A stretch of DNA of 63,297 nt, counting the filler, from Thraustochytrium aureum (Eukaryota): the NCBI GenBank assembly GCA_012862495.1. It is 5 parts of 2 records of this genome, joined end to end, with 100 filler letters (N's around TTAATTAATTAA, not from the genome) between each part and the next. Parts side by side here need not be neighbours in the genome. Positions count along the whole stretch, not along the records: positions 1 to 21,139 come from BLSG01000377.1; 4 more parts are not named here. One strand, given 5' to 3'. This document shows positions 496-60,549 of the stretch, one piece after another. A program made the translations under genes and the position numbers. The notes below the pieces were generated by a model. It was given only the letters and a program-made list of their open reading frames with translations, ran no database searches and was not told where the DNA came from. Positions within the stretch are counted from its first letter, which is position 1, and every line of letters begins with the position of its first letter.

Positions 496-1656
496 ATGGC
501 TTCAACGATGCGAGGCACGGGCGTTGTGACCAGAGAGGCCATGCGAGCGGCCACTCGCCGCGCCGCGATCTCCAAGCATACCGCCTTGCTCGGCAATGCG
601 CGCAACCTCGCGACCGAAAAAGACAAGCCCAAAGAAACGAAGCAGACGCTAATGGATGGCAAGCCTGTGCAAGGCACGACGATGCCCAAGGCGGCCCCTT
701 CCCAGATGGCCAAGCCGTCGACGCCGTACATGAGCACGCAGTGGCGGCAAAGCGAAGAGCAGTTCATCCCGCAAAACGCGCGGAACAAGTCCGTCATGCC
801 CGATCGCCAGCCAATCTCGCAAGAGGGTCTCTTCCGCCAAGGCGCTCACGAGGCGAAAGAAAAGACGGAAACCGCCAAAGCTAAAGCCGAAAGCGTTGCG
901 AGCGAGGCGGCAGGGACGGCGGAGGAAATGGCTCGGTCTGCCAAGGCGAATGCAGGGGAAGCCGTTTCGGAAGCCAAGGGTAAAGCCCAAGAGTTGGCAC
1001 AGACCGCAAAGTCGACCCTTGCCGATACGGGCGACGCAGCCAAGGAAATGGCCCAGTCCGCCAAATCAAAAGCCAAGGAAACCGTGGCCCAAGCGAAAGA
1101 TGGGGCTCAAGGCTTTACCCAGGCTGCAAGGTCGACCGCGGCGGATGCGACGCCGAGCGCCTCTTCCGCCGCCCGCGAGGCGCAAGAAAAGGCGCAAGAG
1201 GTCTCCCACATGGCCAGTGACAAGGCGCAGTCCATGGCGCAGGACGCTCGAGCCAAGGCGGAGGGTTTGAAGGATGCGGCTCCAGACAGCGCGAATGAGA
1301 CCGCTTCTTGGGCCAAAGAGAAGGTCGCCGACGCCGCTGACGTCCTCAAGGACCGCGCTAAGACTGCTACCGAAATGGCAAAGGAGGCCGTGGCGCCACG
1401 CGTCGACGGCATCAAGCGCCAATTGAGCACCAAAGGCCTCGAGCTGAAGGAGAACGTGCAAAAAACGGCCGCGGAAATGGCCGAGGAAGCCAAGGCCTCC
1501 GTGGCGTCCGCCAAGAAGACGCTCAAAGAAGACACCCCAGACGCCGAAGACTTGCGCGTTATCGCGAAGAACACGGCTTCGCACCTCGCCCAGTCGGCCA
1601 AGCATGCAGCCAAGGCCGCCAAGGACAAGGCCGCCCGTATCGCGCACAGCAACTGA
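496..1656 (+). CDS. Group 3 LEA-like (late embryogenesis abundant) hydrophilic protein with possible mitochondrial presequence
   Basis: 386-aa ORF rich in Ala/Lys/Glu with repeating 11/22-mer amphipathic motifs (AKAKAESVASEA, AKGKAQELAQTAK, AKEKVADAADVLKDRAK). The N-terminus is Arg/Ala/Thr-rich and nearly free of acidic residues (MRAATRRAAISKHTALLGNARNLAT). Confidence 0.75.
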   Translation: MASTMRGTGVVTREAMRAATRRAAISKHTALLGNARNLATEKDKPKETKQTLMDGKPVQGTTMPKAAPSQMAKPSTPYMSTQWRQSEEQFIPQNARNKSVMPDRQPISQEGLFRQGAHEAKEKTETAKAKAESVASEAAGTAEEMARSAKANAGEAVSEAKGKAQELAQTAKSTLADTGDAAKEMAQSAKSKAKETVAQAKDGAQGFTQAARSTAADATPSASSAAREAQEKAQEVSHMASDKAQSMAQDARAKAEGLKDAAPDSANETASWAKEKVADAADVLKDRAKTATEMAKEAVAPRVDGIKRQLSTKGLELKENVQKTAAEMAEEAKASVASAKKTLKEDTPDAEDLRVIAKNTASHLAQSAKHAAKAAKDKAARIAHSN

Positions 1657-2035: not shown

Positions 2036-2903
2036 ATGGGCGCAGGGGACACGCTCGCTGTCGTGGTGACGAACCGCATCCCGGTTGCTGACGGGCACGA
2101 GGAAGAGTTTGAGGAAAGGTTTTCGCGTCGCGTCCATCTCGTCGACCGCGCGCCCGGGTTTCTGCGCAACGAGGTGCACCGGCCGCGGCCGAAAAAGTTC
2201 AGCCACGCCACGGGCAAGTGGGAGGACGACACGTCGGGCCAGGCCTACTACGAGGTCAAGACCTGGTGGAGGTCCATGGCCGACTTTGAGGCCTGGACGC
2301 GCAGCCCCGCCTTTGCTGAGGCGCACAACAGCATGCCGCCGCGCGACATGTTTGCAGGCGCGAGCCAGATCGTCGTTTCGGAGGCTTTCTTGTCCACCGA
2401 CCTGGCCTCCAAGACCGTTTCGCCAGAGGAGCTGGCGCGGTTTCGTGGCGAGGGCGGGGCGCCGATCTTTGTCGGACTCTGCNNNNNNNNNNNNNNNNNN
2501 NNNNNNNNNNNNNNNNNNNNNNNNNNNNNNNNNNNNNNNGATCTTTGTCGGACTCTGCGGCAAGGTGTACGACGTGAGCGCTTCTGCAGGATTTTACGGG
2601 CCAGGCGGGGCTTACCACGTCTTTGCGGGCCGCGACGCGTCGCGCGCGCTCGCCAAGGGTCTACTGGACGAGACTCTGGTCATGGAACGCCCCGGCGACC
2701 TCAGCGACCTCAGCGGCGCGGAACAGAACAAGTTGGACGAGTGGACCGAGCGCTTTGAGAGCAAGTACCCGATTGTGGGCGTACTCGCGGGCGGCGCCCT
2801 CGCGTCGACTACAAGCGCGGCGGGCCGGGCCAAGCCTCAGAAGCAGCCTCGCGCCTTCAAGAAGACGGTGGTCGTTGACCCGAAGCAACGGTCCAAACTC
2901 TAG
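2036..2903 (+). CDS. Fusion of an ABM/IsdG-like heme-degrading monooxygenase and a cytochrome b5-like heme/steroid-binding (MAPR) domain, C-terminal PTS1 SKL; about 263 aa after closing the false gap
   Basis: N-domain VVTNRIPV..EEFEERF..APGF..WWRSMADFEAWTRSPAFAEAH. C-domain EELARFRGEGGAPIFVGLCGKVYDVS..FYGPGGAYHVFAGRDASRALAK..LDEWTERFESKYPIVG. Bases 2464-2482 are identical to 2540-2558 on either side of the N gap, and merging them gives one continuous frame ending QRSKL-stop. Confidence 0.85.
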
Positions 2904-4387: not shown

Positions 4388-4636
4388 TGGTCTGCTGTCG
4401 GCGTCGAGAGTGCCTGCTGCGCCTGCTGGTCTGTGGGTCTCGAGAGTGCCTGCTGCGCCTGCTGGTCTGCTGGGCCTCGAGAGTGCTTGCTGCGCCTGCT
4501 GGTCTGTGGCCTCGAGAGTGCCTGCTGCGCCTGCTGGTCTGTGGGCCTCGAGAGTGCCTGCTGCGCCTGCTGGTCTGTCGGCCTCGAGAGTGCCTTGCTG
4601 CGCCTGCTGGTCTGTGGGCCTCGAGAGTGCCTGCTG
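4388..4636. repeat. Minisatellite, about 7 copies of a 35-37 bp unit (tcgagagtgcctgctgcgcctgctggtctgtgggcc)
   Basis: tcgagagtgc recurs at 4404, 4440, 4477, 4512, 4548, 4584 and 4621, with no unique spacers. Confidence 0.95.
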
Positions 4637-4647
4637 GGTGCGCGGAA

Positions 4648-5145
4648 ATGGTGGACCTGGTCTGCCCCACCTGCGACAAGGTCGTCGAGACCGAACCTGT
4701 GGAAGACGCCGAAGTGCCCGGCACGGTGATGTGCCTCGAGTGCGGCGAGGAGTTTGTGCCTGGGGCGGGCAAGTTTGCCAATTTTGTGGTCGGTGTCGTG
4801 CTGGAAGCGGAGGAAATGAAGAAGAAAGGGCTGAAGAAGCTCAAGGTCGACGTTGGTGGCGGCGATGAAAGCGCCGTTCAGATCGTGACGAATGCAAAGC
4901 ACGTTGATGTAGGCTGGCGCGTCGTGGTCGCTCTGGAAGGCGCTGTCGTCCCCGCAGGGTCGGTTCTGGGCGAGGACCCGAACGCTGTCCAAGTCACAAA
5001 GTCGTCCGTCGGCGGCGTCAAGTCTGAGGGCATGCTTTGCGACAGCCCCATGCTGGGCTGGGTGGGCGGCGCCAAGGGCGTAGCGCAAAATCTCCCAGAG
5101 ACGTACTCGGCGGGCGACGTGCCGCCGTTGGAGCGCCCGCGGTAG
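4648..5145 (+). CDS. Stand-alone tRNA-binding OB-fold protein (Trbp111/EMAP-II/PheT-B2 type) with N-terminal zinc ribbon
   Basis: CPTC..CLEC zinc ribbon, then FVVGVVLEAEE..LKKLKVDVG..VQIVTNAKHVDVGWRVVVALEGAVVP..VGGVKSEGMLCD, which are typical tRNA_bind motifs. Confidence 0.8.
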   Translation: MVDLVCPTCDKVVETEPVEDAEVPGTVMCLECGEEFVPGAGKFANFVVGVVLEAEEMKKKGLKKLKVDVGGGDESAVQIVTNAKHVDVGWRVVVALEGAVVPAGSVLGEDPNAVQVTKSSVGGVKSEGMLCDSPMLGWVGGAKGVAQNLPETYSAGDVPPLERPR

Positions 5146-21139: not shown

Positions 21140-21239
21140 NNNNNNNNNNNNNNNNNNNNNNNNNNNNNNNNNNNNNNNNNNNNTTAATTAATTAANNNNN
21201 NNNNNNNNNNNNNNNNNNNNNNNNNNNNNNNNNNNNNNN
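21140..21239. other. Artificial contig linker 44N-TTAATTAATTAA-44N
   Basis: 12-mer with stops in all six frames at 21184-21195, centred in a 100-nt block; same design recurs three more times. Confidence 0.95.
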
Positions 21240-36593: not shown

Positions 36594-36693
36594 NNNNNNN
36601 NNNNNNNNNNNNNNNNNNNNNNNNNNNNNNNNNNNNNTTAATTAATTAANNNNNNNNNNNNNNNNNNNNNNNNNNNNNNNNNNNNNNNNNNNN
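36594..36693. other. Artificial contig linker 44N-TTAATTAATTAA-44N
   Basis: 12-mer at 36638-36649 within an N run. Confidence 0.95.
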
Positions 36694-48085: not shown

Positions 48086-48185
48086 NNNNNNNNNNNNNNN
48101 NNNNNNNNNNNNNNNNNNNNNNNNNNNNNTTAATTAATTAANNNNNNNNNNNNNNNNNNNNNNNNNNNNNNNNNNNNNNNNNNNN
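48086..48185. other. Artificial contig linker 44N-TTAATTAATTAA-44N
   Basis: 12-mer at 48130-48141 within an N run. Confidence 0.95.
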
Positions 48186-51148: not shown

Positions 51149-53131
51149 GGGGCCGCGTCGTCCTCGACAGCGCCAACGTTCTCACCTGGCAGCTCACCTC
51201 CCTCCCGGCGTCCACGTCAGGCGGTATTCACATTCACCAAGGCACCTCGTGCGACTTCTCGCAGGGCCACCACTACGATGCGTCAAAGTATGACGGCTGG
51301 CTCGACACGCGCTGGGCGTCCAACGACGCCGGGGTGTCGCGCGGCATGATCACCGTGGACGACGTCGAGGGCGCGTTCGGGTTTCCGGTCAACGTGGATC
51401 GCGTCATTGTCCTGCACGACCCGGACGGCAAGCGCGTGGCCTGTGGCAAGCTCTTGCCCTACGTCTGGTACCCGGAGCGGGAGGAGGACAACGTCGAGGA
51501 GATTTTGCTGGACTACTCGACGCAAGGCGCGTTCCGTACATACCCTGGCTTCGAGGGCAGCGCGCCGCGCGGCCACGCCTACCTCGACTCGGACAACGTG
51601 TTTTCGTTCGTTCTGCGCAAGCTCGAGCCCGACTCGCAGGGCGGCGTGCACATCCACGTCGGCGCGACCTGCGAGAGCTCGGGGGGCCACCACTACAAGC
51701 CCGGCACGGTGGACGGCTGGCTCGATGTCAAGTGGTCCAGCACGAGCAATGGCGAGGCGCGCGGTGTCGTCGACCTCAACACGCTGCCTGGGGCGTACCC
51801 GTTCGTAGCCAACCTGGACCGGACCGTCGTGGTTCACAACAGCGCAGGCGCTCGCGTTGCGTGCGCCGTGCTCCGCTCCAACGCCGACACGGGCGTCACA
51901 GGCGTGATGGGCGTCTACCCAGACTCGGAATCTAGCATCATTCCTGGAGGCCTTGTTTTCCTCACCAAGCGCAACACGTTCTCCTGGTACCTCACCGGTC
52001 TTGAGCCGGGCGTTACGGGCGGGGTGCACATCCACGCTGGCATGTCCTGCGGAGAAAACACCGGCCCGCACTGGTTCTTGGACGGCGAGGTTGACGGGTG
52101 GAACAAGATCCAGTACTCGTCCACATCCATGGGCACTGCACGCGGTGTCATCAGCCTTGACACCATATCTGGGCTCTACCCCTTCGCCGACAACGTGGGC
52201 CACACGGTTGTCGTGCACGCCGCCGACGGCTCGCGCGTTGGCTGCGCGGTCCTCGACAGATTCACTGAAAACGCAGGGGACGAGGCCGCAGAGGCAAGCG
52301 AAGCCCACGGCGAGATCGAAAACGACTGGAGCGATTGGTTCACGGCGCGCGCAAACCTGGATCGGTACCCTGGACTGGACGAGAGCATCAGCCCCCCAGA
52401 AGGCCGCGTGCTCCTTAACCACGACAACGTTCTCACCTTCATCCTCCAGAAGCTTCCGCCCGACCAGTCGGGCGGGATCCACATCCATGCCGGCAAAACG
52501 TGCGAGACGGCTGGTCCGCATTGGTACCGACCGGGCCCGACCGACTCCTGGAACAACGTGTTCTGGAAGTCTGACTCGAAGGGCCGTGCCCACGGCGTCG
52601 TCGACGTGGACGCCCTCGTTGGCTTGTATGGGTTTGCCTTCCAACCTGGACCATGCGGTTGTTGTGCACGACGCTGCTGGGGCGCGCGTCGCCTGCGGGG
52701 TGCTCTCATCGCGAGGCAAACCCATCGCTGTCGAGAACCAGTTTCGCCGGTACCCAGGGCTTGACGAGGCCGTTCCCGCGCCGAGCGCGGACGCTCTGCT
52801 CTCGATCGAAAACGTCCTTGAGGTGGACGCCTGGAACCTCGAGCCTAACGCTGCATCTGGCGTTCATATCCATGTCGGCCTCTCGTGCGAAAACTCGATG
52901 GGGCACCACTATTTGGCCGGCGAGGCGGATTTTTGGAACGACGTCAAGCTGCATGCCGATGAGAACGGCGACGCGTTTCTCAAGATCGACCTCAACGAGT
53001 ACGTCGGGGCGTATTCGTTTGAAGAGAACGCCTACCGTGCCATTGTCATCCACAACTCGGCTGGCGTGCGCGTCGCCTGCACGACGCTCAGCTTGCTCAA
53101 GGTGGGCCGCGACCGCGACTGGGACGAATAA
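51149..53131 (+). CDS. Protein of at least 5 tandem Cu/Zn-SOD-like domains lacking Zn ligands (5' end in gap; indel near 52641)
   Basis: Five repeats of about 125-150 aa, each with G(I/V)HIHxGxxC..G(H/P)H(Y/W)..D(G/S/F)W..G.A.G..N..(R/H)xxV(L/V/I)HxxxGxRV(A/G)C. Confidence 0.8.
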
Positions 53132-60449: not shown

Positions 60450-60549
60450 NNNNNNNNNNNNNNNNNNNNNNNNNNNNNNNNNNNNNNNNNNNNTTAATTA
60501 ATTAANNNNNNNNNNNNNNNNNNNNNNNNNNNNNNNNNNNNNNNNNNNN
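60450..60549. other. Artificial contig linker 44N-TTAATTAATTAA-44N
   Basis: 12-mer at 60494-60505 within an N run. Confidence 0.95.

Follow-up and report, generated by a model that had tools for sequence, protein, structure and literature searches.

The closest described relatives of the catalytic half of the protein considered here are MhuD of Mycobacterium and IsdG/IsdI of Staphylococcus and Bacillus, all of them bacterial, single-domain proteins of the ABM fold. In IsdG-type chemistry a meso carbon of heme is hydroxylated with O2 and two electrons, and the ring is then opened by O2 alone without release of CO (PMC10148152). An Asn/Trp/His triad defines the activity of the family (PMC5557675), and in MhuD the change of Arg26 to Ser shifts the product to biliverdin (bioRxiv 10.1101/731950). 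The triad is also required in LFO1 of Chlamydomonas, one of a set of algal IsdG-like proteins of probable bacterial origin that is predicted to be chloroplastic (PMC5557675). The 19 eukaryotic table rows of that survey, which cover green algae, diatoms, Vitrella, and Aureococcus, include no labyrinthulomycete and note no fusion to cytochrome b5. The other half belongs with PGRMC1, PGRMC2, Dap1, and Arabidopsis At2g24940, which carry the MAPR domain. PGRMC1 and PGRMC2 were put forward as heme chaperones (PMC5366339, PMC7140478), and in vitro PGRMC1 hands its heme on to cytochrome b5 (PMC5366339). The passages of PMC5366339 that were searched make no mention of peroxisomes in the context of MAPR proteins, and a review lists the route of heme into peroxisomes as unknown (PMC7140478).

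We analyzed a stretch of 63,297 nucleotides, filler included, from the Thraustochytrium aureum assembly GCA_012862495.1 (the window), which contains a gene for a 263-residue protein that joins these two domains and ends in SKL (Table 1). Like MhuD and IsdG/IsdI it has the ABM fold, the triad, and a Phe and an Arg at the MhuD positions, but it adds an insert of 15 residues, the MAPR domain, and a PTS1. Like LFO1 and the algal proteins it is eukaryotic, triad-bearing, probably of bacterial origin, and, by its signal, predicted to be organelle-targeted, although LFO1 is predicted to go to the chloroplast (PMC5557675). It shares with PGRMC1, PGRMC2, Dap1, and At2g24940 the MAPR domain and its FYGP-Tyr and KY heme residues and differs from them in its oxygenase fusion, its PTS1, and its lack of a membrane anchor. 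We consider it probable, at roughly 60%, that this soluble protein acts as a heme oxygenase in peroxisomes and that its MAPR domain captures loose heme and feeds it to the catalytic domain. Both domains and the signal are known; their combination and location did not turn up in the literature searched, in which subscription journals were thinly covered, and the architecture is present in databases yet undescribed in that literature. The search also returned no paper that speaks of a "peroxisomal heme oxygenase", in agreement with the original prediction, whose author knew of no described protein with this architecture and location.

Table 1. Features of the T. aureum gene and of the assembly gap that interrupts it (positions in the window)
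Feature	Position	Strand	Basis
One gene encoding a 263-aa ABM-MAPR-PTS1 protein, interrupted in the assembly by a false gap	2036..2903	+	Overlap, bridging contig, homolog spacing
Assembly artefact: 57 N followed by a repeat of the 19-mer found at 2464-2482	2483..2558		Overlap, contig, no GT..AG
ABM / IsdG-MhuD-type domain: Asn13 (2072-2074), Phe29, Arg32 (2129-2131), Trp78, Trp87 (2294-2296), His97 (2324-2326)	2060..2395	+	PF03992, 3e-14
Insert of ~15 residues, predicted beta-hairpin, limits approximate	2192..2227	+	Alignments; strands 60-63 and 68-71 in P0003 model
MAPR (PGRMC1-type) cytochrome b5-like heme-binding domain, across the false gap: Tyr162, axial Tyr168 (2613-2615), Lys218-Tyr219 (2763-2768)	2405..2789	+	PF00173, 3.3e-7
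Basic C-terminal tail with QPR-containing motif	2790..2891	+	Comparison with P0001, P0010, P0011, P0006, P0248
PTS1 tripeptide SKL; stop at 2901-2903	2892..2900	+	Translation, conservation

One gene across a false gap

The assembly presents the gene as two ORFs on either side of an N-run at 2483-2539; the two are one gene, and the join is real. The 19 nt that flank the run are identical (2464-2482 and 2540-2558), and none of the other N-gaps in the window, 23 in all with this one, has ends that overlap by more than 1 nt. When the 19-mer is counted once, an open frame of 263 aa plus stop results, ending in RSKL. In the joined protein the heme His lies 55 aa from the VYDV motif of the MAPR domain, a distance of 56 in the closest intact homologs and of 56 to 98 in the 9 homologs measured. 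Four public runs were compared at the junction: a 420-nt contig from run X2, a run guessed to be RNA, connects 2463 to 2540 with 76 nt left out and 53 letters on its short side, and the other three, the one DNA-type run included, have no coverage there. The skipped 76 nt are not a canonical intron, because none of the 20 possible registers yields GT..AG, and we ruled out that interpretation of the gap.

Separate genes for the two halves, or real sequence within the gap, would fit a junction that is bridged by one contig only, possibly of RNA, and that the DNA-type run does not span; against this stand the exact overlap, the restored frame, the missing GT..AG, the agreement in spacing, and intact fused homologs at 74% identity, and we regard such an arrangement as extremely improbable. 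The original prediction had called the 57-N gap false and the two ORFs one protein of about 263 aa, with PCR or reads over 2460-2560 as the check; both points are borne out, the evidence including the one independent contig. It had also described a protein that ends in SKL and has no transmembrane anchor. The best 19-residue window of the 263-aa protein has a hydropathy of 1.23 and the protein therefore has no transmembrane helix; an N-terminal anchor of the PGRMC1/2 type is absent, the N-terminus being the ABM domain.

The neighbors of the gene in the window are unrelated housekeeping genes. A 386-aa Ala/Lys/Glu-rich repeat protein encoded at 496-1656 (+) appears by eye to be LEA-like with a mitochondrial-type N-terminus, and its Pfam matches are weak and below cut-off. 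A tandem repeat of ~35 nt at 4400-4640 lies directly upstream of a small tRNA-binding-domain gene (4627-5145, PF01588), and a 537-aa frame at 51151-52761 (+) has Cu/Zn superoxide dismutase-like matches (1.2e-13) and is far longer than one such domain. At 21140-21239, 36594-36693, 48086-48185, and 60450-60549, two 44-N gaps surround a 12-nt island, a regular scaffolding artefact.

The ABM and MAPR domains

The N-half matches PF03992 (ABM) and the C-half PF00173 (Cyt-b5), both above cut-off, and every motif named in the original prediction was located, with Asn13, Phe29, Trp87, and His97 in the former and Tyr162, Tyr168, and Lys218-Tyr219 in the latter. The likeness to Staphylococcus IsdG/IsdI on which that prediction leaned holds for the Asn/Trp/His triad, but the sequence as a whole is closer to TT1380 of Thermus (1.7e-16) and then to MhuD (2e-8), with IsdG/IsdI much weaker; TT1380 (PDB 1iuj), although the best solved match, is labeled hypothetical. 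Asn13, Trp87, and His97 align to MhuD Asn7, Trp66, and His75, and Arg32 aligns to MhuD Arg26. Together with Arg28, Phe29, and Trp78, these residues are invariant in all 120 of the best stand-alone relatives. The insert of ~15 residues is missing in TT1380 and MhuD and common to a Myxococcota-rich bacterial subfamily described below. The NCBIfam heme oxygenase models tried, which include equivalogs of the IsdG, IsdI, and HmuQ types, match the domain below cut-off throughout (best scores 46.7 against 119 and 44.9 against 130), and by these comparisons the domain is not an ortholog of a named member and belongs to the wider IsdG/MhuD family only.

Structural comparison used a predicted model of the intact homolog P0003. 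A first version built from 7 sequences was poor (pLDDT 58); a second from 72 sequences reached pLDDT 90 and pTM 0.60 and is uninformative on the contact between ABM and MAPR, because most rows of its alignment cover one domain. The ABM part matches TT1380 best (Z 15.6, rmsd 1.4 over 100), with 4nl5 (MhuD, Z 12.6), 8avh, and 1xbw (Z 11.9) all at Z 11.9 to 12.6. Several non-heme ABM enzymes, including SnoaB and ActVA-Orf6, are nearly tied with MhuD (Z 11.4 to 12.9), so the fold by itself does not fix the substrate, and cofactor-free oxygenases of other substrates also use it. An ABM domain that oxygenates a quinone, a polyketide, or another aromatic compound in the peroxisome, with heme bound only by the MAPR domain, would agree with these near ties and with the lack of a clear iron link in the bacterial gene context. 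We nonetheless hold it to be highly improbable, since heme-degrading proteins rank well above the SnoaB/ActVA-Orf6-type enzymes by sequence, the invariant His and Trp stand ten residues from each other, and the domain to which it is fused is a heme binder. The ABM domains of IsdG and MhuD form homodimers, and tandem-ABM relatives (P0135, P0189, and P0193) are compatible with an ABM dimer. Tandem ABM-ABM versions of the same subfamily, which are probably eukaryotic, form the clusters P0135, P0189, P0193, and P0293.

For the C-half the closest solved sequence is PGRMC1 (4x8y, 2.9e-18), which also matches the MAPR part of the P0003 model (Z 18.7, rmsd 1.9 over 110 residues). The predicted FYGPxGxY and KY residues are all present, with one refinement: by alignment to PGRMC1 the axial heme ligand is Tyr168, the later of the two Tyr residues in the FYGP motif, and we take it to correspond to PGRMC1 Tyr113. 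This Tyr is conserved in 9 of 10 aligned fused homologs.

A peroxisomal heme oxygenase with a MAPR domain that relays electrons from a peroxisomal reductase, and does not feed heme, would suit the cytochrome b5-like fold, the need for two electrons in the first IsdG-type step (PMC10148152), and the absence of a fused reductase domain. Neither in the protein itself nor encoded nearby did we find an electron donor. Five-coordinate, Tyr-ligated hemes have low potentials and are poorly suited to electron transfer. MAPR heme is of this kind, unlike the bis-His heme of cytochrome b5 (PMC5366339), and electron relay is therefore less likely than heme capture; with P0135 lacking the axial Tyr as well, we judge the relay quite improbable. 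The original interpretation, which had admitted both roles for the MAPR domain, is supported in part: its architecture, its false gap, and its peroxisomal signal stand and gain strength from the conservation of fusion and PTS1 in relatives, heme capture is preferred to relay, and heme degradation, peroxisomal location, and handover between the domains are proposals.

Fused homologs, bacterial relatives, and origin

The co-occurrence of ABM and Cyt-b5 domains, which the original prediction had proposed to look for in other eukaryotes, recurs in 8 clusters besides the T. aureum protein (12 of 348 fetched proteins). A first search for longer proteins gave 8 matches among 227 candidates, 5 of them with both domains, and later searches contributed the fused proteins P0135, P0188, and P0334. 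An automatic JGI label on P0001 names both domains. One fused member comes from Aplanochytrium (EukProt label), and the T. aureum domain pairs with it in the ABM tree (100/99); the MAPR domain of the T. aureum protein is placed, with weak support (83), beside a Mucochytrium protein. Both placements point to a labyrinthulomycete host. All catalytic residues are retained in the T. aureum protein and in those fused homologs that cover the positions.

Stand-alone relatives of the ABM domain are far more numerous: of 702 candidates, 689 clusters of 66 to 210 aa pass E<=1e-20, and the top 120 are 64 to 76% identical to it. The GTDB search yielded 212 confirmed stretches, and the 80 best of them comprise 45 from Myxococcota, 10 from Planctomycetota, 8 from Pseudomonadota, 6 from other groups, and 11 unassigned. 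This Myxococcota-rich subfamily resembles the T. aureum protein in its ABM domain and in carrying the same ~15-residue insert, and differs in being ~119 aa long, unfused, and devoid of a PTS1 (0 of 120 stand-alone relatives). In trees the eukaryotic ABM sequences are placed among the bacterial ones, from which we infer transfer from bacteria; these sequence data point to horizontal acquisition of the ABM gene from the Myxococcota-rich family. The eukaryotic sequences form two groups, supported at 98/89 and at 97/97, and the branch of P0135 is long. A single eukaryotic clade was recovered in 0% of 200 bootstrap trees, yet it is not rejected by the AU test (p-AU 0.47, 0.21, and 0.20).

A bacterial operon as the source of the fusion was considered and rejected, as no MAPR gene is present in the 175 bacterial loci scanned (1.33 Mb), and the fusion therefore probably arose in a eukaryote. 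The best 80 loci of a metagenome scan all match the ABM part only. On the proposed course of events, a bacterial ABM gene would have been acquired and then fused to a host MAPR gene that bore a PTS1, and transfer followed by fusion has a thraustochytrid precedent in crtIBY (PMC10016063).

Heme oxygenase genes of bacteria are reported, for representative cases, to lie in clusters with uptake genes (PMC13715372). Around 80 of the bacterial ABM loci, the 150 nearest neighbors (of 151 selected) include no heme-uptake gene; 3 HemB and 6 P450 proteins occur among them, in mutually related genomes. In three related myxobacterial loci (L020, L062, and L075) the ABM gene lies between hemB and a gene for an Lcp/MpaB-type oxygenase, an order that we take as a weak hint of a link to heme. 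A canonical heme oxygenase was found in 1 of the 5 bacterial genomes with an ABM relative that were compared, an uninformative result.

Predicted peroxisomal targeting, parallel fusions, and proposed function

The strict PTS1 consensus is [SAC][KRH][LM]. Conservation of SKL in fused relatives, as the original prediction implied, was found in the form of a strict PTS1 in 7 of the 9 fused clusters (one protein per cluster, the T. aureum protein counted); another ends in PRL, and P0004 has no such signal and a tail that has diverged from that of its 82%-identical relative. Outside the fusions a strict PTS1 occurs in 8 of 160 MAPR-only and 0 of 166 ABM-only proteins, an enrichment that the Fisher value of 3e-7 overstates, given the relatedness of the sequences. 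The tails nevertheless vary in length and carry different endings (SKL, AKL, and AKM), a pattern that speaks for selection acting on the signal. All 8 of the PTS1-bearing MAPR-only proteins belong to one of two MAPR clades, that of the ABM fusions or that of the heme oxygenase fusions described next. In the stramenopile Nannochloropsis, SKL directs a reporter to peroxisome-like puncta (PMC7710942), and the annotation of the thraustochytrid Aurantiochytrium includes a peroxisomal catalase (PMC12221091); the text supplements of the latter study give no match to six heme or ABM terms.

A second kind of fusion has the same order of heme oxygenase domain, MAPR domain(s), and terminal SKL or SQL. 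P0250 (478 aa) combines a PF01126 heme oxygenase domain (1.5e-32) with two MAPR domains and SKL, and P0190 (531 aa) combines PF01126 (6.5e-20) with three MAPR domains and SQL. They differ from the T. aureum protein in their all-helical canonical fold and in having 2 or 3 MAPR repeats of another clade. In a quick MAPR tree of 108 rows, which included 22 of 116 other multidomain MAPR proteins, the MAPR domains of these fusions form a group of their own (SH-aLRT 88) apart from those of the ABM fusions, so the two fusions are independent. By sequence, then, a MAPR-PTS1 tail is joined to two unrelated heme oxygenase folds, the second being represented by these two full proteins, for which we found no description in the literature searched. 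SKL is also the ending of P0234, which has 65% identity to the C-part of P0190, and of P0236 from the foraminiferan Nonionella stella, which has 53% identity to the MAPR part of P0250. With P0237 they make up a set of related MAPR-repeat proteins that end in SKL or AKL.

By analogy, this parallel supports an ABM domain that acts on heme, with the peroxisome as the site, and is the strongest indirect evidence for both. The heme oxygenase reading also has points against it: the NCBIfam scores are far under their cut-offs, TT1380 is a hypothetical protein, the sampled bacterial relatives have no uptake genes beside them, no electron donor is fused to the protein or encoded in its vicinity, the ABM fold is shared with cofactor-free oxygenases of other substrates, P0004 lacks the PTS1, and decayed forms exist (P0248, P0244, and P0135). 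P0248 keeps the MAPR domain, the tail, and SKL and has an ABM domain without the Asn and the His. P0244, from Mucochytrium and possibly incomplete, has MAPR and SKL with no ABM match, as does P0298, which may also be incomplete. Of the two ABM domains in P0135 the second is degenerate, and this protein also has a Phe in place of the axial MAPR Tyr and the PRL ending. Further one-domain or decayed forms, a MAPR protein ending in GKL among the types, include P0299 and the unfused ABM protein P0218, which ends in GKL. Since the domains persist without each other in such forms, tight coupling between them is not required.

These forms bear on a reading of the protein as a peroxisomal heme buffer or chaperone, in which both domains store heme or supply apo-catalase and degradation is slow or incidental. 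It would account for MAPR-PTS1 proteins that persist with the ABM domain decayed or absent (P0248, P0244, and P0298) and for sampled bacterial relatives that do not adjoin uptake genes, and a study of MhuD reportedly describes an inactive diheme storage form. We think it unlikely, however, given the full catalytic set in the T. aureum protein and in the fused homologs covering those positions, and given canonical HO-1 domains on the same MAPR-PTS1 module, which point to degradation as the partner function.

For the preferred heme oxygenase, we propose that Pex5-type import would carry the protein into the peroxisome matrix, where its ABM domains would dimerize as in IsdG/MhuD. The MAPR domain would bind heme through Tyr168 and buffer it or hand it over. 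In the catalytic domain His97 would ligate the heme iron, Trp87 would distort the ring, and Asn13 would steer bound oxygen; two electrons from a donor would yield hydroxyheme, which O2 would open without further reductant to give iron and, without CO, a bilin that would resemble mycobilin or formyl-staphylobilin. Catalase heme and H2O2 are abundant in peroxisomes, and the heme would most plausibly come from catalase turnover.

More tentatively, and with somewhat less than even confidence, we suggest a so far undescribed heme-recycling module of protist peroxisomes in which a PTS1-tagged MAPR catcher was joined in separate events to heme oxygenases of two unrelated folds. One would be the IsdG/MhuD type, gained by horizontal transfer, in protists that are labyrinthulomycete-like and in others, and the second canonical HO-1 in a foraminiferan-related and another lineage; the parallel with canonical heme oxygenase suggests that such a module would be general in protists. 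If the proposed function is correct, peroxisomes would be a site of heme breakdown, MAPR domains would feed heme oxygenases directly, IsdG-type enzymes would extend to nonphotosynthetic eukaryotes, and a large bacterial subfamily that is so far unstudied would gain its first functional handle. Heme handover by MAPR domains is debated for PGRMC1/2, and a soluble two-domain protein puts this question, with a defined acceptor, in one tube with that of peroxisomal heme degradation.

The basic tail that precedes the signal may serve as an import enhancer or a second targeting signal. Its QPR motif lies ~20 to 25 residues upstream of the PTS1 and is retained even in P0248; a strict QPR pattern matches P0001, P0010, P0011, P0006, and P0248, and the T. 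aureum copy is similar and falls outside the strict pattern.
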